Positions 1,415-30,828 of a stretch of DNA of 64,000 bases are shown piece by piece; the stretch's first letter is position 1; each line of letters begins with the position of its first letter. Source of the stretch: Gemmatimonadota bacterium (GTDB taxonomy: Bacteria; JAAXHH01); contig JAPPBT010000018.1 in NCBI GenBank assembly GCA_026702745.1, positions 32,259 through 96,258 on the forward strand, read 5' to 3'. The position numbers and the translations under genes were made by a program. The notes under the pieces are model-generated. The model did not search any database and was not told the DNA's origin. It saw nothing but the letters and a program-made list of their open reading frames with translations.

Positions 1415-1993
1415 TTACTGCCCTTCGATCATACCCAGGATCTCCACCAGGCTGTCGGTCGAAGGCCGGTCGAAGGGGTCCGATCCCACGTACTTGAACC
1501 GAAGGACGCCTTCCTTGTCGATGATGAAGGCCGTGGGAGCTACCTCCGTCCCCTTGTCGGTGTCTATCTCGATCTTGAACTTGGTGGGTATGGCCCGGTC
1601 CGGATCGGCGACAACGCGAAAGGAGAGTTCCTCCCGCGTGACTTTCGACTTGGCGACGAAATCCCTGGTTTGTTCGAGATCTTCGGGATTGATGAAGAGT
1701 AGTTCGGTGTCGAGTGCCGCTATACGTTCGTAATCGGATTGCAACTGCCCCAGTTGCCGTAAGCAAAGGGGTCACCAGTAGCCTATCCAACCGCGGTCGA
1801 CGACCACGAGCAGGTTCTTGCTGCCCTTGTAATCGGCGAAGTTGACGGTCTCGCCGTTGACGTCCTGCAGGCTGAACTCCGGTGCGGCCTCATTCAGCCT
1901 CGGCGCCAGGTTCCGCGGTTGCGCGTCGGCGAACTCCGTCACCAGGCCGACCAGGGCCAGGGCGAAACACCACCGCGCCAGTGTATGAATCAT
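1415..1993 (-). CDS. Thioredoxin-fold (AhpC/TSA/redoxin-like) selenoprotein with signal peptide; in-frame UGA (Sec) at 1772-1774 gives a UxxC motif
   Basis: ORFs 1772..2164 and 1415..1744 are in the same frame, separated only by TGA. Read-through gives ...LLVVVDRGWIGYW-U-PLCLRQLGQL..., with the TGA exactly where redoxins have the first Cys of WCxxC. Start ATG at 1993 follows AGGAGGAAG SD and a signal peptide MIHTLARWCFALALVGLVTEFADA. The C-terminal half has redoxin hallmarks (FIIDKEGVLRF). Confidence 0.6.
1741..1757 (-). promoter_or_regulatory. Candidate bacterial SECIS hairpin (GCAACUG-GGG-CAGUUGC) 16 nt downstream of the UGA
   Basis: Perfect 7-bp stem with G-rich apical loop on the mRNA strand immediately 3' of the in-frame UGA at 1772-1774. 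Confidence 0.35.
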
Positions 1994-23442: not shown

Positions 23443-25878
23443 CTACTCCATCCGCAACGACTCGACCGGGTTCGCGGCAGCGGCCCGCACGGCCTGGAAG
23501 CTGACGGTGAGCAGGGCGACCGCCATGGCGAGAGCGCCTGCGAGAACGAAGGTGGTCCAATCCAGGTCGACGCGGTAGGCGAAACCTTCCAGCCAGGCGT
23601 TCATCGCGAAATAGGCGACTGGCCAAGCCACCACGAGGGCCGCGATCACGAGCCGGAAGTACTCTCGAGACAACAGCGCGACGAGACCGGAGGTAGAAGC
23701 GCCGAGGACCTTGCGGACCCCGATCTCCTTCCTGCGCCTTTCCGCGGTGAAGGAGGACAGCCCGACGAGCCCGAGGCAGGCAATAATCACGGCCAGCACG
23801 GAAAAACTGATGAAGATCCTTCCGAACCGCTGTTCGGCATCATATAGGCGCGCGAAGGTGTCTTCTACGAAAAAGTACTCGAATGCCCAATCAGGATTTA
23901 CTTCATGCCATGCCTCTTCGATTGCCGATAGCCCTTCCGACATGCGACCTGCATCGATTTTGATCATGGCGTAACCGCCCGGATAGTTCGGAAACAGCAC
24001 CAGCGGTTCGATGGGTTCGCGTAAGGTGGCATAGTGGAAATCCCTGACCACGCCTACGATCGACGGCCGTAATTCACCTCGCTCATCGGAATCCGTAATC
24101 AGTTCCTGCAGCCCTTCGATCTCCTTACCCAACGCCTCGCCGGCGGATGCATAGCCAAGCCGGTCAACGGCCGCTTCGTTGACTACGACCGCTCCCGTCG
24201 CTGTCCAGTCGCCGGGGAACGCGGAATCGAAATTGCGGCCCGCCACCAGTTCGATGCCGAAAATCCCGATGAAATCATCGTCCACCCAGGCCTGGTTCAT
24301 ATCGATCATCGATGATTCGTCCTGGCCCCGTCCGCGCGCCTTGATCGGCGCCGCGGCGTTCTTGTGCCCTGGAAGCAGGAAATTCATCGAGACGTTCGTC
24401 ACCGCAGGTATCTCCTTCAGCCGTGCTTTGTAGACGCTGGATCTCACGACAACCGGCGCGAAGGTCTGAGGCACCGCGACGACCTGGTCGGAATTGAGCC
24501 CCATGTTTCGCGCGCGTATGAAATCGAGTTGGCTGTAGACCACGCCGGTGCAGATGATGAGGGCGATCGAAATCACAAACTGGCCCACGACCAGGACCCG
24601 GCGGATGGCCGCGTTTCCGGCACCTGTGGAGCGCAGGCCGCTCAGTGCCTGGACCGGTGCGAGCCCGGACAGGTAAAGGGCCGGATAGCTGCCCGAGACG
24701 AAACCCACGACGGCGCCGATCGCCACGACGGCGCCCAGGGCGAACCAGGCGGTTTCCGCATTCAGGGACAGGGATTTGCCCGTGAGCAGGTTGAACCACG
24801 GCAGACTCAACAGGGCAAGCAGGAGGGCGACGCTGACCGCCAGCCCGGTCATGAGCATGGACTCGCTGATGAACTGCCGGATCACCTGGCCCCTGGCCGC
24901 GCCGAAGGTCTTTCGCAGGCCGATCTCCCCGGCCCTTCCCGCGGAACGCGCGGTGGCCAGGTTCATGAAGTTGATGCACGCGATGAGGATGATGAACACG
25001 GCAATGCAGCCGAAAAGATAGACGTACCGGATATCGCTGTTCGGTGTCAGTTCCCGCTCGAGATGAGAGTGAAGATGGATATCCGTGACCGGCTGCAGCC
25101 TGAAGGCCAATGTCGACGATACACCATCATATTGGTCGCCGACGTACTTTTCCACGAAGGCGGGCAGCCTGGCTTCCAGTTCATCGGGATCGCTGCCCTC
25201 GCGGAGCAGGACATAGCCGTACGACTTTCGCCAGTCCCACACGTCGGCCGGTTTATCCGCGTAGTGCTCCTGGATCCGGAACGCCGCGAGGATGTCGAAT
25301 CCGAGGTGCGTGTTGGCGGGCAGGTCCCGCATGACGCCGGTCACCTCGAAATGGAAGGACCCCTCGGCATCCAGGATCTTGCCCATGGGATCTTCGTCGC
25401 CGAAGTATTTCCGGGCAATGGACTCCGACAGCACGACTTTGTCGATACCGGCCAGGGCCGTCCGCTGATCGCCGGCGATCAGCGGCACATCGAAGACTTT
25501 GAAGACCGACGAGTCGGCCAGGTAGAAGTTTCGTTCGTAGAATCCCCGGTCCCCGTACTTGATCATCCAGGCGTTTCCGGGCGGGACGAAGCGCACCATG
25601 TCTTCCACTTCGGGGAAGTCTTCGCGCATGAACTTGACCGTGGGCGTCATGACTTCGGCGGTTCGGATCACCTGGTCGCGGTCGCGCTCTTCCGAGATTA
25701 CCCGGTAGATACGGTCCGCCTTTTCATGGAACTGGTCATAGCTCAACTCGTCCCGGATATAGAGCAGGATGAGGAGGGCGCACGCGATCCCGAGCGCCAG
25801 GCTCATCACGTTGATGGCCGAGTAACCCTTCTCGCGGTTCAGATGGCGCACGGCCACCGTCAGGTAGTTGCGGAACAT
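23443..25878 (-). CDS. ADOP-family permease (MacB-like periplasmic domain + duplicated FtsX), paralog 1
   Basis: 811 aa; N-terminal TM after MFRNYLTVAVRHLNREKGYSAINV; two FtsX-type 4-TM modules; C-terminus ...NPVESLRME. Confidence 0.85.
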   Translation of the reverse strand: MFRNYLTVAVRHLNREKGYSAINVMSLALGIACALLILLYIRDELSYDQFHEKADRIYRVISEERDRDQVIRTAEVMTPTVKFMREDFPEVEDMVRFVPPGNAWMIKYGDRGFYERNFYLADSSVFKVFDVPLIAGDQRTALAGIDKVVLSESIARKYFGDEDPMGKILDAEGSFHFEVTGVMRDLPANTHLGFDILAAFRIQEHYADKPADVWDWRKSYGYVLLREGSDPDELEARLPAFVEKYVGDQYDGVSSTLAFRLQPVTDIHLHSHLERELTPNSDIRYVYLFGCIAVFIILIACINFMNLATARSAGRAGEIGLRKTFGAARGQVIRQFISESMLMTGLAVSVALLLALLSLPWFNLLTGKSLSLNAETAWFALGAVVAIGAVVGFVSGSYPALYLSGLAPVQALSGLRSTGAGNAAIRRVLVVGQFVISIALIICTGVVYSQLDFIRARNMGLNSDQVVAVPQTFAPVVVRSSVYKARLKEIPAVTNVSMNFLLPGHKNAAAPIKARGRGQDESSMIDMNQAWVDDDFIGIFGIELVAGRNFDSAFPGDWTATGAVVVNEAAVDRLGYASAGEALGKEIEGLQELITDSDERGELRPSIVGVVRDFHYATLREPIEPLVLFPNYPGGYAMIKIDAGRMSEGLSAIEEAWHEVNPDWAFEYFFVEDTFARLYDAEQRFGRIFISFSVLAVIIACLGLVGLSSFTAERRRKEIGVRKVLGASTSGLVALLSREYFRLVIAALVVAWPVAYFAMNAWLEGFAYRVDLDWTTFVLAGALAMAVALLTVSFQAVRAAAANPVESLRME

Positions 25879-25885
25879 GGCGCGT

Positions 25886-28342
25886 CTACTCGGTCCGAAG
25901 GGACTCGACGGGATTGGCGGTGGCCGCCCGCACGGCCTGGTAACTCACCGTCAGGAGGGCGAGGGCGATGGCAAGCGCGCCGGCCAGGACAAAAGTCATC
26001 CCGTCCAGGGCGACACGGTACGCGAAATCGTCGAGCCAACGATTCATCGCGAAATAGGCGGCCGGCCAGGCGATTACGTTGGCCACGATCACGAGCCGGA
26101 CGAATTCCCCCGATATCAACCCGATCACGTTCGGCGTGGACGCGCCGAGGACCTTGCGCACTCCGATTTCCTTCGTGCGCCGTTCCGCGGTGTAGGAGGA
26201 GAGGCCCACGAGACCGAGGCAGGCGATAAACACGGCCAGTACGGCGAAACTGACGAATATCCGACCGAAGCGTTGCTCGGCTTCGTAGAGGCGCGCATAG
26301 GTATCTTCGACGAAAAAGTACTCGAAGGCGAAGTCGGGGTTTGTCTCGCGCCATGCTTCCTCGATCGCCGAAAGGCCTTCCGAAAGTTGGTTGTCGTTGA
26401 TCTTGACGACCACGTGGCTGCCGTCGGACTCGGGAAAGAGTACCAGAGGTTCGATGGGTTGATGCAGCGAAGCGTAGTGGAAGTCTTTCACGACGCCTAC
26501 GATACTGCGCGGTTCCGCGGTCTCCTCATCGAAACCCTGTCGCTCGTCGAAAACCCAGTCAAACCGACCATCCAGGGCTTCTTCGGCGGAACCGTAACCC
26601 AGCCGGGAAACTGCGGCTTCGTTCAAAACCGTCCCGCCGCCCGCTCCATACCAGTCGGCGACGAATGCGCGATCGAAGAACCTGCCGGCGGCCAGTTCCA
26701 TGCCGAACGTATCGAAAAACAGGTCGTCCGTCCAGGCCTGGTTCATTTCGATCTTGGCGTTATCACCTTCGCCCAACCTGCGCACAACGGCGGTGATCAC
26801 GGCGTTCTTGTGAAAAGGCAGGATAAAGGTAGCCGTGGCATCCTCCACGTATGGAATTTCCCGCACCCGCTGTCTATATTGTCGCGCCTTCTCAATGACC
26901 GGGGTAAACGTCAGCGGCACGGCGACGAGCCGTGCCGTGTCCATACCCAGGTTCCGGTTTCGGAGGTAGTCGAGCTGGTCGTACACGACGCCTGTGCAGA
27001 TGATCAGGGCGATCGAGATTACGAACTGGCCCGCGACCAGCGTTCTGCGCATGTCCACGTTGCCGGAGTCCCCGGACAACGCGCCCTTCAAGGTATCGAT
27101 CGGAGCGAGTCCGGACAGGTAAAGCGCGGGATAGCTTCCCGATACGAGGCCGACCACGATGCCGGTCACCGCCACGGCGCCCATGATGAACCATGCGGTA
27201 TCCGCGGTCATGGATATGGATTTTCCCGATACCAGATTGAACCAGGGCAAACCGAGCACAACCAGCAGCAGCGCGACGCATACCGCCATTCCGCTCATGA
27301 TCAGGGATTCGCACAGGAACTGACGCGTCACCTGGCCCCGGCCCGCGCCGAAGACCTTTCTCAGGCCGATTTCCCGGGCCCTTCCCGCGGACCGTGCGGT
27401 TGCCAGGTTCATGAAGTTGATGCAGGCGATGAGGATGATAAACACGGCGATCGCCGAAAAAAGATACACGTACCTGATGTCGCTGTTCGGCGTCAGTTCC
27501 CGCTCGAGCCGGGAATGAAGGTGGATGTCCGTCACGGGCTGCAGCCGGTAGGTCAGCGATGACGTTTCGCCGTCGTGGATATCGCCGACATACTTCTCCA
27601 CAAAAGCAGGCAACCTGGCTTCCAGTTCGGCTGGATCGCTTCCCTCCCGGAGCAGGACGTAACTGTAAGACTTGCGCCGGCCCCAGTCGTCGAGCGACTC
27701 GTCCGCGAACGCCTCCTGAATCCTGAATGACGCGAGTATGTCGAACCCGAGGTGCGTATTGGACGGCAGGTCCGCCATGACGCCGGTCACTTCCAGATGA
27801 AAGGTCCCTTCGGCGTCCAGGATCTTCCCTATGGGGTTCTCGTCGCCGAAGTACTTGCGGGCCACTGACTGGGATAGCACGACCCGGTCGTTTCCGCTCA
27901 GTGCGGTCCGGGGATTACCTGCCAGAAGCGGCACATCGAACACGTTGAAAACAGAACTGTCGGCCAGGTAGAAATCGCGTTCGTAGAATCCCCGGTCGCC
28001 GTACTTGACCATCCAGGCGTTCACGGGAGGGTTGAAGCGCACCATGTCTTCCACCTCGGGGAAGTCTTCGCGCATGAACCTGGCCGTGGGTGTCATGACT
28101 TCGGCAGACCGCACGGACCGGATGGACCGGTCGACCCCGCCGCCCTGCCATTCCTCGGAGATCACGCGGAAGATGCGGTCCGCCTTGCCGTGATAACGGT
28201 CATAGCTCGACTCGTCCCGGATATAGAGCATGATGAGGACGCAGCACGCGATCCCGAGCGCCAGGCTCATCACGTTGATGAACGAGTAACCCTTCCTTCG
28301 ACTCAGGTGCCGGAGGGCAACCGTGACGTAGTTTCTGAACAT
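25886..28342 (-). CDS. ADOP-family permease, paralog 2
   Basis: 818 aa, collinear with paralog 1 including near-identical nucleotide stretches; 7-nt gap to paralog 1. Confidence 0.85.
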   Translation of the reverse strand: MFRNYVTVALRHLSRRKGYSFINVMSLALGIACCVLIMLYIRDESSYDRYHGKADRIFRVISEEWQGGGVDRSIRSVRSAEVMTPTARFMREDFPEVEDMVRFNPPVNAWMVKYGDRGFYERDFYLADSSVFNVFDVPLLAGNPRTALSGNDRVVLSQSVARKYFGDENPIGKILDAEGTFHLEVTGVMADLPSNTHLGFDILASFRIQEAFADESLDDWGRRKSYSYVLLREGSDPAELEARLPAFVEKYVGDIHDGETSSLTYRLQPVTDIHLHSRLERELTPNSDIRYVYLFSAIAVFIILIACINFMNLATARSAGRAREIGLRKVFGAGRGQVTRQFLCESLIMSGMAVCVALLLVVLGLPWFNLVSGKSISMTADTAWFIMGAVAVTGIVVGLVSGSYPALYLSGLAPIDTLKGALSGDSGNVDMRRTLVAGQFVISIALIICTGVVYDQLDYLRNRNLGMDTARLVAVPLTFTPVIEKARQYRQRVREIPYVEDATATFILPFHKNAVITAVVRRLGEGDNAKIEMNQAWTDDLFFDTFGMELAAGRFFDRAFVADWYGAGGGTVLNEAAVSRLGYGSAEEALDGRFDWVFDERQGFDEETAEPRSIVGVVKDFHYASLHQPIEPLVLFPESDGSHVVVKINDNQLSEGLSAIEEAWRETNPDFAFEYFFVEDTYARLYEAEQRFGRIFVSFAVLAVFIACLGLVGLSSYTAERRTKEIGVRKVLGASTPNVIGLISGEFVRLVIVANVIAWPAAYFAMNRWLDDFAYRVALDGMTFVLAGALAIALALLTVSYQAVRAATANPVESLRTE

Positions 28343-28383
28343 GGTGAAACTTTACCGCTATTAAAAGGAACGAGAGAGGCGGT

Positions 28384-30828
28384 CTACTCAGTCCGCAGGG
28401 ACTCGATCGGGTTGGCGGTGGCCGCCCGGACGGCCTGGTAACTCACCGTCAGCAGGGCGATCGCCATGGCGAGGACGCCGGCGAGGACGAAGGTCGTCCA
28501 GCCCAGGTCGACGCGGTAGGCGAAGTTTTCGAGCCAGTTGTTCATCACGAGGAAGGCGGCCGGCCAGGCGAAGACGTTGGCCACGATTACGAGCCGGACG
28601 AATTCGTTGGACAGGAGCCGGAACAGTTTCGGCGTGGAAGCGCCCAGGACCTTGCGCACACCGATTTCCTTCGTGCGCCGTTCGGCCGTAAAAGACGCGA
28701 GTCCGAAGAGACCCAGGCACGCGATGAGGACGGCGAGCACGGCAAAACTGACGAATACCTGGCCGAATCGCTGCTCGGCGTCGTAAAGGCGCGCGAAGTT
28801 GTCTTCCACGAAGAAGTACTCGAAGGCGAACTCCGGGTTGACCTCATGCCAGGTTTCCTCGATTGCGGCGAGCCCTTCAGCCATGAATTCCGGCTTGATC
28901 TTGACGACGACGTGACCGCCCTGAAAGTCGGCGAACAGGACCAGGGGGGCTATGGGCTGGTGCAAGGACGCGAAATGGAAATCCTTTACGACCCCGACGA
29001 TCCGGCGCAGTTGAACGCCTTCCTCGTTCCATCCCTGCCGCAGCTCTCTCATCCAGTTCACTTCCTTGCCCACGGCATCTTCCGGTGATTCGAATCCGAG
29101 CCTCGTTACGGCGGCCTCGTTCAGCACAGCCCCGCCGCCCGCGGTCTCCCAGCCCCAGTCGCTGACGAAGGAGGGATCGAAGTAACGGCCCGTGACCACT
29201 TCGATGCCCAGCGTCTCCAGAAAATCCTCATCCGTCCAGGCCTGGTTCATGTCGATCTTCGCAAAGTCACCGTCGCCCGGCCGCTGTAACGTAATCGGTA
29301 TCACGGCGTTCCTGTGGCCGGGAAGTATATAGGTGGAGGTCGCGTTGGTTACATAGGGACTATCCTTCACGCGCTGTTTGTAGATCCTGGCCGTCTCCTG
29401 GACCGGATCGAAAGTCAGCGGTACGGCGACGACCTGGTCCGTGTTCAGTCCCATGTTTCTCTGCTGGATGAATTCAAGCTGGTTGTACACGACCCCGGTG
29501 CATATGATCAGGGCGATCGAAATGACGAATTGGCTGACGACCAGGATCCTGCGCATTCCCGCGGTACCGGAACCCGACGCAAGCGTCCCCTTCAGGGTCT
29601 CGATGGGCGCCAGGCCGGACAGGTAGAACGCGGGATAGCTCCCCGAAACGCACCCTACCACGACACCGATGACCACCACCGCGCCAAGGGCGAACAACGT
29701 GGTGCCCGGATCCACGGCCAGCGACTTGCCGGTGAGCAGGTTGAACCAGGGCAGACTGACCACCGCCAGAAGCAGGGCGAGGCATACGGCCATTCCGCTC
29801 ATGAGCAGCGATTCGATCAGAAACTGCCGGGCCATCTGGGCGCGGACCGCGCCGAAGACCTTTCGAAGGCCGATTTCCCTGGCCCGGCCCGCGGACCGGG
29901 CGGTCGCCAGGTTCATGAAGTTGATGCAGGCGATGACGATGATGAAAACCGCGATGGCGGCAAAGAGATAGACGTATCTGACGTCGCTGTTGGGCGTCAG
30001 TTCCCGTTCCAGGCGGGAGTGCAGGTGGATATCCGTCACCGGCTGCAACCTGTACGTCAGGGATGCATCGCCGCCTTCGTAGCGATTCCCGAGGTGCTTC
30101 TCCACGAAAGCGGGCAGCTTGGCTTCCAGTTCGGCCGGGTCGCTGCCGTCCCGAAGCACGATATAGCTATGGGCCGTGCGCCAGCCCCACTCGTCGACTT
30201 TGGTGTTGGAGTAGGCTTCCTGGATCTTGAAGGACGCGAGTATATCGAATCCGAGGTGCGTGTTGGAAGGCATGTCGGGCATGATGCCCGTCACCTCGAG
30301 GTGAAAAGTGCCCTCGGCGTCCAGGATCCTGCCCATGGGGTCCTCGTCGCCGAAGTACTTTCGGGCCATGGATTCGGACAGCACGATCTTGTCGTTTCCG
30401 GTGAGCGCCGTCTTCGGATTGCCGGTCAGCAGGGGGACGTCGAACACGTTAAAAACGGTCGTATCGGCCAGATAGAAATTCCGTTCGTAGAACCCCTTGT
30501 CCCCGTACTTGACCATCCAGGCATTCCCGGGCGGGACGAGGCGGACCATGTCCTCTATTTCCGGGAAGTCTTCCCTCATGTACCAGACTGTAGGGATCAG
30601 AACGTCCGCATTTCGAACGACCTCGCCTCCCTGCCGGTATTCGGCGGTTACGCGGAATGTTCGGTCCGCGCGATCGTAGAACCGGTCATAGCTCAATTCA
30701 TCGCGGATGTAGAGCAGGATGAGCAGGCAGCAGGCGATTCCGAGCGCCAGGCTCATGACGTTGATGAATGAATAACCCTTGTGCCGGTTAAAGTGACGGA
30801 TCGCTACCGTGAAGTAGTTGCTGAACAT
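28384..30828 (-). CDS. ADOP-family permease, paralog 3
   Basis: 814 aa, same architecture; C-terminus ...NPIESLRTE. Confidence 0.85.
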   Translation of the reverse strand: MFSNYFTVAIRHFNRHKGYSFINVMSLALGIACCLLILLYIRDELSYDRFYDRADRTFRVTAEYRQGGEVVRNADVLIPTVWYMREDFPEIEDMVRLVPPGNAWMVKYGDKGFYERNFYLADTTVFNVFDVPLLTGNPKTALTGNDKIVLSESMARKYFGDEDPMGRILDAEGTFHLEVTGIMPDMPSNTHLGFDILASFKIQEAYSNTKVDEWGWRTAHSYIVLRDGSDPAELEAKLPAFVEKHLGNRYEGGDASLTYRLQPVTDIHLHSRLERELTPNSDVRYVYLFAAIAVFIIVIACINFMNLATARSAGRAREIGLRKVFGAVRAQMARQFLIESLLMSGMAVCLALLLAVVSLPWFNLLTGKSLAVDPGTTLFALGAVVVIGVVVGCVSGSYPAFYLSGLAPIETLKGTLASGSGTAGMRRILVVSQFVISIALIICTGVVYNQLEFIQQRNMGLNTDQVVAVPLTFDPVQETARIYKQRVKDSPYVTNATSTYILPGHRNAVIPITLQRPGDGDFAKIDMNQAWTDEDFLETLGIEVVTGRYFDPSFVSDWGWETAGGGAVLNEAAVTRLGFESPEDAVGKEVNWMRELRQGWNEEGVQLRRIVGVVKDFHFASLHQPIAPLVLFADFQGGHVVVKIKPEFMAEGLAAIEETWHEVNPEFAFEYFFVEDNFARLYDAEQRFGQVFVSFAVLAVLIACLGLFGLASFTAERRTKEIGVRKVLGASTPKLFRLLSNEFVRLVIVANVFAWPAAFLVMNNWLENFAYRVDLGWTTFVLAGVLAMAIALLTVSYQAVRAATANPIESLRTE

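Follow-up and report, generated by a model that had tools for sequence, protein, structure and literature searches.

Does the TGA triplet that separates two same-frame open reading frames (ORFs) at 1993-1415 of the window terminate translation, or does it encode selenocysteine (Sec, U)? The window is the whole 64,000-nucleotide (nt) stretch of contig JAPPBT010000018.1 from a Gemmatimonadota bacterium, and all positions refer to it. An initial annotation had proposed that the two ORFs, parted only by the TGA at 1772-1774, are read through to give a redoxin of the AhpC/TSA type with Sec at the TGA. Its coordinates were right, whereas the strand had to be corrected: the gene lies on the minus strand. 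Translation of 1993-1415 (-) is broken once only, by the in-frame TGA 1774-1772, and the read-through product of 192 residues contains the segments ...DRGWIGYW-U-PLCLRQLGQLQ...APTAFIIDKEG...DPFDRPS.... Our answer is that this stretch is very probably one gene for an exported thioredoxin-fold selenoprotein redoxin, with Sec in the motif U74-P-L-C77 and a downstream hairpin directing its insertion. The answer rests on four observations: one frame continues through the TGA with selection acting on either side, the TGA itself is conserved, Cys takes its place in homologs, and a covarying hairpin follows the TGA in the TGA forms only. On these grounds the initial interpretation as a selenoprotein is supported.

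With Cys modelled at the TGA, the read-through protein matched the Pfam family AhpC-TSA over profile positions 2-123/124 (E = 6.7e-23, 81.4 bits against a gathering cut-off of 26) and the family Redoxin (E = 3.4e-20, 72.8 bits against a cut-off of 26.6). Since both profiles span the TGA, the two same-frame ORFs are the halves of one domain, as had been supposed.

Cys was found at the TGA position in several kinds of homologs. The WCPYC motif of P0029 aligned with W-U-PLC, and the TlpA-like proteins L024, L038 and L062 have WCxxC there. In the best match among solved structures, PDB 3kcm, WATWCPPC aligned to U74-P-L-C77 and the V-P-E-T-F-V-I-D loop to A-P-T-A-F-I-I-D, its Pro matching Pro153; the ResA structure also aligns a Cys at the TGA. 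Among the full-length relatives of about 30% identity obtained by an exhaustive profile search, RGFxGxxCPxC was in register with RGWIGYW-U-PLC in 11 of the 14 that were aligned. These alignments bear out the claim that the UGA occupies the place of the first Cys of WCxxC. Pro153 presumably adopts the cis conformation, as is usual in the thioredoxin-type family. In homologs of the peroxiredoxin (Prx) type, Thr or Ser aligned to U74 and the peroxidatic Cys to C77, and an Arg stands in place of the Pro-Thr loop. These features and the Cys alignments indicate a thiol:disulfide oxidoreductase of the CxxC type, similar to TlpA and ResA, rather than a peroxidase. A Prx function was rejected on the motif register (Sec in the first, not the second position) and on the Pro-for-Arg difference; all Prx models of NCBIfam (Prx, BCP and PrxU were tested) scored far below their cut-offs, and the combination of PxxxTxxC/U with Arg was not found in the protein.

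The TGA was then followed through the family. Ortholog DNA came from 22 species-level genomes, the JGI contig L081 and the metagenome contigs L083 and L084, making 25 close orthologs of 64-96% identity. TGA stands at codon 74 in all 25, with colinear, conserved protein on both sides. Many further matches of the profile search were fragments of about 105 amino acids; DNA was fetched for nine such divergent relatives (L163, L164, L166, L167, L168, L170, L171, L172 and L173), and the TGA is present in these as well. Sec-type orthologs, which the initial annotation had expected among Acidobacteria, thus exist, but their affiliation is a different one: the record titles of the orthologs name Candidatus Latescibacterota or "Gemmatimonadetes/Gemmatimonadota" metagenome-assembled genomes (MAGs). 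The isolate names of these MAGs suggest sponge and coral hosts.

Both halves of the gene are under purifying selection. The ratio of nonsynonymous to synonymous substitution rates (dN/dS) was 0.18 in codons 2-73 (dS 0.42), 0.12 in codons 27-73, the mature N-terminal part (dS 0.46), and again 0.12 in codons 86-190, after the TGA (dS 0.54). The P-x-C codons after the TGA show third-position variation as in translated sequence, with CCC, CCG, CCT and CCA for Pro and TGC and TGT for Cys across the family. Because of the selection on both sides and the conservation of the TGA, a pseudogene or a natural C-terminal truncation can be set aside; the initial annotation had named this as one of the findings that would speak against a selenoprotein. 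Reassignment of TGA to Trp or Gly was also considered and rejected: TGA is the commonest stop in the window, where it ends 21 of the 38 long ORFs, and it is the genuine terminator of this very gene in nine of the 22 genomes (TAG in 12, TAA in one). ORF pairs split by a single in-frame TGA are numerous in the window (119 were listed), and a redox motif lies at the TGA in none of them except the target.

The second line of evidence is the hairpin, here called A, with the sequence GCAACUG-GGG-CAGUUGC. The initial description of a perfect 7-bp stem with a GGG loop was accurate; its distance was not, as the stem starts 14 nt, and not 16 nt, after the UGA, and the loop 21 nt after it. A published model of the bacterial Sec insertion sequence (bSECIS; SECIS without reference to bacteria) calls for a loop of 3-9 nt, a stem of 4-16 bp, a G in the first two loop positions and 16-37 nt between UGA and loop (PMC13188914). 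Hairpin A has this geometry, with its 3-nt loop, 7-bp stem, G in the first two loop positions and 21-nt spacing. For comparison, a perfect hairpin of at least 7 bp that satisfies the spacing and loop rules follows 8 of the 1,679 TGA triplets in the window (0.5%).

The hairpin region is frozen at the nucleotide level. The 30-nt block 1768-1739 is the same, nucleotide for nucleotide, in all 23 aligned genomic sequences and in L081, the ortholog of 64% identity. Codons 75-85 have a dS of 0.011, against 0.42-0.54 in the flanks; of the 11 degenerate codons among them a single one varies, while elsewhere 84 out of 104 do (Fisher p = 3.7e-6).

In the nine divergent relatives the sequence does change, and eight of them keep the register, with a stem of 5-7 bp that starts 14-15 nt past the TGA. 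It has 7 bp in L163 (W-U-PLC), L164 (W-U-PHC, closing pair G-U), L166 (W-U-PFC, 8 bp with a flanking G-U pair), L167 and L168 (both W-U-PHC), 6 bp in L170 (W-U-PP-U) and L173 (W-U-YAC), and 5 bp in L172 (F-U-PYC); L171 (H-U-GIC) has no stem in register. The loop begins with G in seven of the eight stems (GGA, GGG, GUU, GGU, GUC, GGUCA and GUG), the loop of L170 being UCG. The stem is kept through compensating changes. The peptide QLGQL is encoded by CAA-CUG-GGG-CAG-UUG in the window and by CAG-UUG-GGU-CAA-CUG in L167, a synonymous swap that preserves the pairing; elsewhere, the closing pair G-C has become C-G in L163 and an A-U pair has become G-C in L168. Pairs were counted in a gapless alignment of 12 sequences, with a sliding 3' partner and 500 shuffles as controls. 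Of the cells of hairpin A, 91.7% pair, against 12-48% in the slid controls; four of the seven pairs change on both sides, and the observed covariation score was reached by none of the 500 shuffles, a control that overstates significance as the 12 sequences are related. Because relatedness inflates the shuffle result, the argument from covariation is based on the slid controls and the synonymous swaps. The hairpin is a property of the Sec forms: the best rule-satisfying stems were 2-5 bp in Cys forms against 4-8 bp (median 7) in Sec forms, and P0088, a Cys form of the same subfamily, has no hairpin in register. It is, in sum, conserved, covarying and confined to the TGA forms, and with its fit to the geometry of the published model (PMC13188914) the earlier reading as a bacterial SECIS is supported.

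Several observations weigh against this interpretation. The energy of the bare 17-mer, -7.4 kcal/mol, sits at the threshold of the bSECIS model, -7.5 kcal/mol (PMC13188914); in a 40-nt context it is -8.8 kcal/mol. Rfam gave no match, either for the whole window at gathering thresholds or for 1650-1850 at E up to 10. The 66-nt segment folds no better than its shuffles (z = -0.82), and for this reason the case for a SECIS is built on conservation and covariation, not on energy. Genes for the Sec machinery (selA, selB, selC, selD) were absent from the 64-kb window and the 20-kb flanks of the orthologs: ARAGORN detected no tRNA-Sec either in the window or among L001-L022, where L020 yielded just two tRNA-Ser, and phmmer, with E. 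coli SelA, SelB and SelD as queries, gave no match among the six-frame ORFs of the window and 82 loci (1.45 Mb). This search covered one syntenic region and otherwise well under 1% of the relevant genomes, which makes it uninformative rather than negative. The persistence of the TGA and of a costly, frozen hairpin in every lineage examined is indirect evidence that a decoding system exists. In L166 (904-1431) about 400 nt separate the Sec-redoxin homolog from a downstream gene of the GRDB family (PF07355, glycine/betaine reductase B); this is itself a selenoprotein family, and its presence there fits a Sec-using organism.

The remaining objection concerns the structure of the RNA. An alternative fold, B, includes the UGA, shows some covariation of its own and is 3.5 kcal/mol more stable than hairpin A. 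In the close clade it is the minimum-energy structure of RNAfold (-12.3 against -8.8 kcal/mol, pair probability 0.79-0.93), with the UGA and CCCC paired to GGGG-CA. Function might lie with fold B, which sequesters the UGA, or with a switch that must proceed from B to A, hairpin A being in either case only a part of the signal; we regard this as rather unlikely. Fold B would explain why the spacer, which has no part in hairpin A, is invariant, and the only variable site in the spacer, a C to U change in L001, keeps a G-U pair in B. Its column 9 covaries with column 21 (UA in six sequences, CG in three). Across the 12 sequences of the family, however, 78% of its cells pair, each of the CCCC/GGGG pairs is unpaired in 2-5 of the 12, and the loop has no conserved nucleotide and no conserved G. 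Moreover, B must melt when the UGA is in the A site, the minimum-energy fold of L163, L166, L167 and L168 contains A and not B, and hairpin A by itself agrees with the published bSECIS model (PMC13188914). We read A as the SelB-binding element and B as possibly a resting structure specific to the clade, and a B-to-A switch is possible. In its most explicit form, which we offer as a speculation that is probably not correct, the arriving ribosome would melt the UGA-sequestering fold B, whose 3' half would then snap into hairpin A at the mRNA entrance and so time the recruitment of SelB. The basis of this idea is that the 33 nt after the UGA, including the 14-nt spacer, are frozen across species at a dS of about 0.5, down to 64% identity.

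Two further explanations concern the fate of the codon itself. The UGA could be recoded with the help of the hairpin to a residue other than Sec, by near-cognate read-through with tRNA-Trp or by SelB-like delivery of Cys by a tRNA-Sec-like tRNA(Cys); Sec-to-Cys recoding by such a tRNA has been described for some bacteria. What the evidence presented here establishes is that the UGA is translated and the hairpin functional; it does not identify the residue chemically, and the genes of Sec synthesis were not found in the window or the flanks. Nevertheless, we consider this highly improbable. The hairpin has the geometry of a SelB-type bSECIS with a G-first loop, and the UGA lies exactly at the redox Cys position, forming a classical Sec/Cys pair. 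If Cys were the residue, a plain TGC would suffice, yet every lineage examined keeps the TGA together with 30 costly invariant nt; Trp at the nucleophile position of CxxC would inactivate the enzyme, at odds with the dN/dS of 0.12. Lowest of all we rate a pseudogene or a naturally split gene, in which a 73-residue peptide ends at TGA-74 and the 109-residue ORF is untranslated or started at TTG 1744. Database entries would agree with it, all being fragments of 108-109 amino acids, sometimes with a separately called 73-residue ORF, and so would an additional in-frame TAG in one related population (L164/L165). This TAG is the sole other lesion, whereas the stop codon is at the same position in the 25 close and nine divergent relatives. 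Codons 75-84, from the TGA to the TTG, would be non-coding and yet encode P-x-C with coding-type variation, and neither fragment alone holds a complete thioredoxin fold or the redox motif.

The TAG-bearing relative is of some interest in its own right. In this syntenic sequence (P0032; L164:789-818 and L165:776-805), W-TGA-PHC-LRQLG is followed by the in-frame TAG, after which the frame continues. The TAG corresponds to CAG (Gln83) in the window; with the C-to-U change, the closing pair of the hairpin persists as G-U. The two contigs are 99.8% identical and represent one population. The TAG could be a recent nonsense mutation, or it could be read through or recoded.

For the preferred interpretation, Sec insertion at the UGA, we infer SelB dependence, Sec incorporation, export, a catalytic cycle and a redox partner in the following form, modelled on the standard bacterial mechanism. 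With UGA-74 in the ribosome, the 17-nt hairpin A, 14 nt downstream, would be located at the mRNA entrance. SelB-GTP-Sec-tRNA(Sec) would bind its G-rich apical loop, and Sec would be inserted in place of termination by release factor 2 (RF2). The UGA is followed by C, and UGA-C is reportedly a poor RF2 signal in E. coli. The product would be exported by means of its signal peptide. In the periplasm Sec74 would attack a substrate disulfide or an oxidised thiol, Cys77 would resolve the intermediate with formation of an intramolecular selenenylsulfide, and a reductant, perhaps of the CcdA/DsbD type, would recycle the enzyme. A predicted signal peptide of the general secretion type comprises residues 1-24, MIHTLARWCFALALVGLVTEFADA, with QP after the cleavage site; it has the shape of n-, h- and c-regions and an AxA site. 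The ADA-QPRNLAP junction is kept in most orthologs, and most Cys-form homologs in the full-length alignment have signal or lipoprotein leaders.

How the protein relates to known systems can be seen from several comparisons. Prx-like thiol:disulfide oxidoreductases (PF00578; UxxC or UxxU) are listed in a 2026 review among the selenoprotein families 'predicted with high confidence' (PMC13188914). They correspond to the groups 'Prx-like 1-3' of the Global Ocean Sampling selenoproteome; of these, "Prx-like 1" by itself comprised 225 members with Sec beside 2,740 Cys homologs (PMC2398784). Like this class, the window gene has the PF00578/PF08534 fold and places Sec first in the CxxC-equivalent motif (U74-P-L-C77 aligns with WCPPC of 3kcm, where thioredoxins have CxxC); Cys homologs are abundant, a SECIS follows directly within the coding region, and the setting is marine. 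It differs in having a subfamily signature of its own, RGW[IV]GYW-U-P-x-C ... VGxxPxDRPS, and in its occurrence in symbiont MAGs labelled Latescibacterota, a group that the literature search did not link to Sec use; papers pairing Latescibacteria with selenocysteine were incidental co-mentions only. The gene is best described as an uncurated subfamily of the Prx-like UxxC class, placed there by class-defining features.

The best NCBIfam match of the protein was NF040769, 'SelL-related redox protein' (E = 1.2e-16). Both are Prx-like and have the motif at the CxxC position, but the score of 60.8 bits lies below the curated cut-off of 120, as do the scores of the Cys-form relatives. In L170 (211-222), a distant member of the family, a second in-frame TGA follows the first at three codons, giving W-U-P-P-U, with overlapping candidate hairpins downstream; this UxxU motif is like that of eukaryotic SelL. 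With TlpA, ResA, StoA and DsbE (PDB 3kcm, 1st9 and 3erw) the window protein has in common the predicted export, a W-C-P-x-C aligning with W-U-P-L-C and a Pro-Thr loop before the F-I-I-D strand, and it differs from them by Sec in place of Cys. It scored far below the equivalog cut-offs of ResA (42.6 against 170), StoA (34.1 against 210) and DsbE (18.4 against 123). It probably works like the ResA/TlpA/DsbE enzymes without being a member of those equivalogs. PrxU and other Sec-peroxiredoxins (TxxU) are selenoproteins of the same superfamily; unlike the window protein, in which Sec comes first, they have Sec or Cys in the second position (TxxU/TxxC) and Arg for the cis-Pro, and the PrxU model was not among the NCBIfam matches. 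The SECIS of E. coli fdhF is likewise a hairpin within the coding region, placed at a short fixed distance 3' of the UGA; its small apical loop contains G and G/U, and there too a larger fold can include the UGA. Hairpin A has no sequence similarity to it, lacks the bulged U, and has a triloop instead of GGUC and a 14-nt instead of an 11-nt spacer.

Sec also occurs elsewhere in the superfamily. TlpA-like genes in Desulfobulbaceae/Desulfocapsaceae-labelled MAGs (L027:8958 and L041:10157) and on a metagenome contig (L093:354) contain W-TGA-SSC, and about 10 nt after the TGA another conserved hairpin begins, GGAAGG-AGAUG-CCUUCC, which differs from hairpin A; these genes look like an independent branch with Sec. 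In P0034 (298 amino acids), a Sec-type C-terminal fragment is fused to a second, Cys-type TlpA-like domain (WATWCPPC), a tandem redoxin architecture.

The features of the locus are collected in Table 1. The AGGAGG that had been noted at the start lies 6 nt before the ATG, and the -10 hexamer of the promoter candidate ends 54 nt upstream of the ATG.

Table 1. Features of the Sec-redoxin locus, in positions of the 64,000-nt window
Feature	Position	Strand	Remarks
Sec-redoxin coding sequence (proposed), complete	1993-1415	minus	192 codons including Sec74; ATG 1993-1991; TAA terminator 1417-1415; from translation
Shine-Dalgarno AGGAGG	2005-2000	minus	Read from the sequence; 6-nt spacer to ATG
Sigma-70-like promoter candidate TTAACA-17-TATATT	2076-2048	minus	Consensus scan, 10/12 matches; pattern match only
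Predicted Sec-type (secretory) signal peptide	1993-1922	minus	Residues 1-24, cleavage after ADA; n/h/c regions and AxA site
Proposed Sec codon UGA, codon 74	1774-1772	minus	First position of U-P-L-C; next nt C, i.e. UGA-C
Cys77 codon TGC, putative resolving Cys of UxxC	1765-1763	minus	Column C77 invariant in full-length alignment
Hairpin A, putative SECIS apical hairpin	1757-1741	minus	5' arm 1757-1751 GCAACUG; loop 1750-1748 GGG; 3' arm 1747-1741 CAGUUGC
Invariant block, 30 nt	1768-1739	minus	Spacer and hairpin A; longest invariant run in gene
Alternative fold B, UG.CCCC.UUGCU / GGCAA..GGGG.CA	1774-1746	minus	Includes UGA; mutually exclusive with hairpin A
Pro153 codon, putative cis-Pro	1537-1535	minus	In A-P-T-A-F-I-I-D; column P153 nearly invariant

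The divergently transcribed neighbour of the gene, at 2179-2970 on the plus strand, encodes a TIM-barrel protein of the AP_endonuc_2/xylose-isomerase-like type, which still adjoins the Sec-redoxin gene in the most divergent syntenic relatives (L081:13-804 and L164:2-421). No genes for a redox partner (CcdA, DsbD, thioredoxin reductase) or for cytochrome maturation were found near the Sec-redoxin gene. At a distance, 23443-30828 (-) contains three head-to-tail paralogous ORFs of 811, 818 and 814 amino acids, mutually 68-70% identical and all terminated by TAG; their N-terminal sequence appears to resemble that of FtsX/MacB-type ATP-binding cassette permeases.

Public gene calls split the gene in all close orthologs, into an ORF of 73 amino acids (1993-1772) and one of 108-109 amino acids started at an internal TTG (1744-1415). 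In the protein database, 28 close homologs of 64-99% identity were found, all called as 108-109 amino acids beginning just after the TGA and none of them named. The split is a systematic annotation artefact, and no NCBIfam model captures the subfamily, every related curated cut-off having been missed. Since the entries are unnamed fragments of this kind, the enzyme and the selenium use of the lineage are invisible in current annotation. In concept the gene represents no new mechanism; a member of this kind was to be expected in a class known since 2004-2008. In the QLGQL segment, the family provides an example of covariation achieved purely by synonymous codon swaps. If the interpretation is true, it documents Sec decoding in sponge- and coral-associated Latescibacterota, of which the searchable literature makes no mention. 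To the redox enzymes of this uncultured, host-associated lineage it would add a selenoenzyme that is conserved and probably periplasmic, and it predicts that the genomes of this lineage encode selA, selB, selC and selD and that these organisms need selenium.

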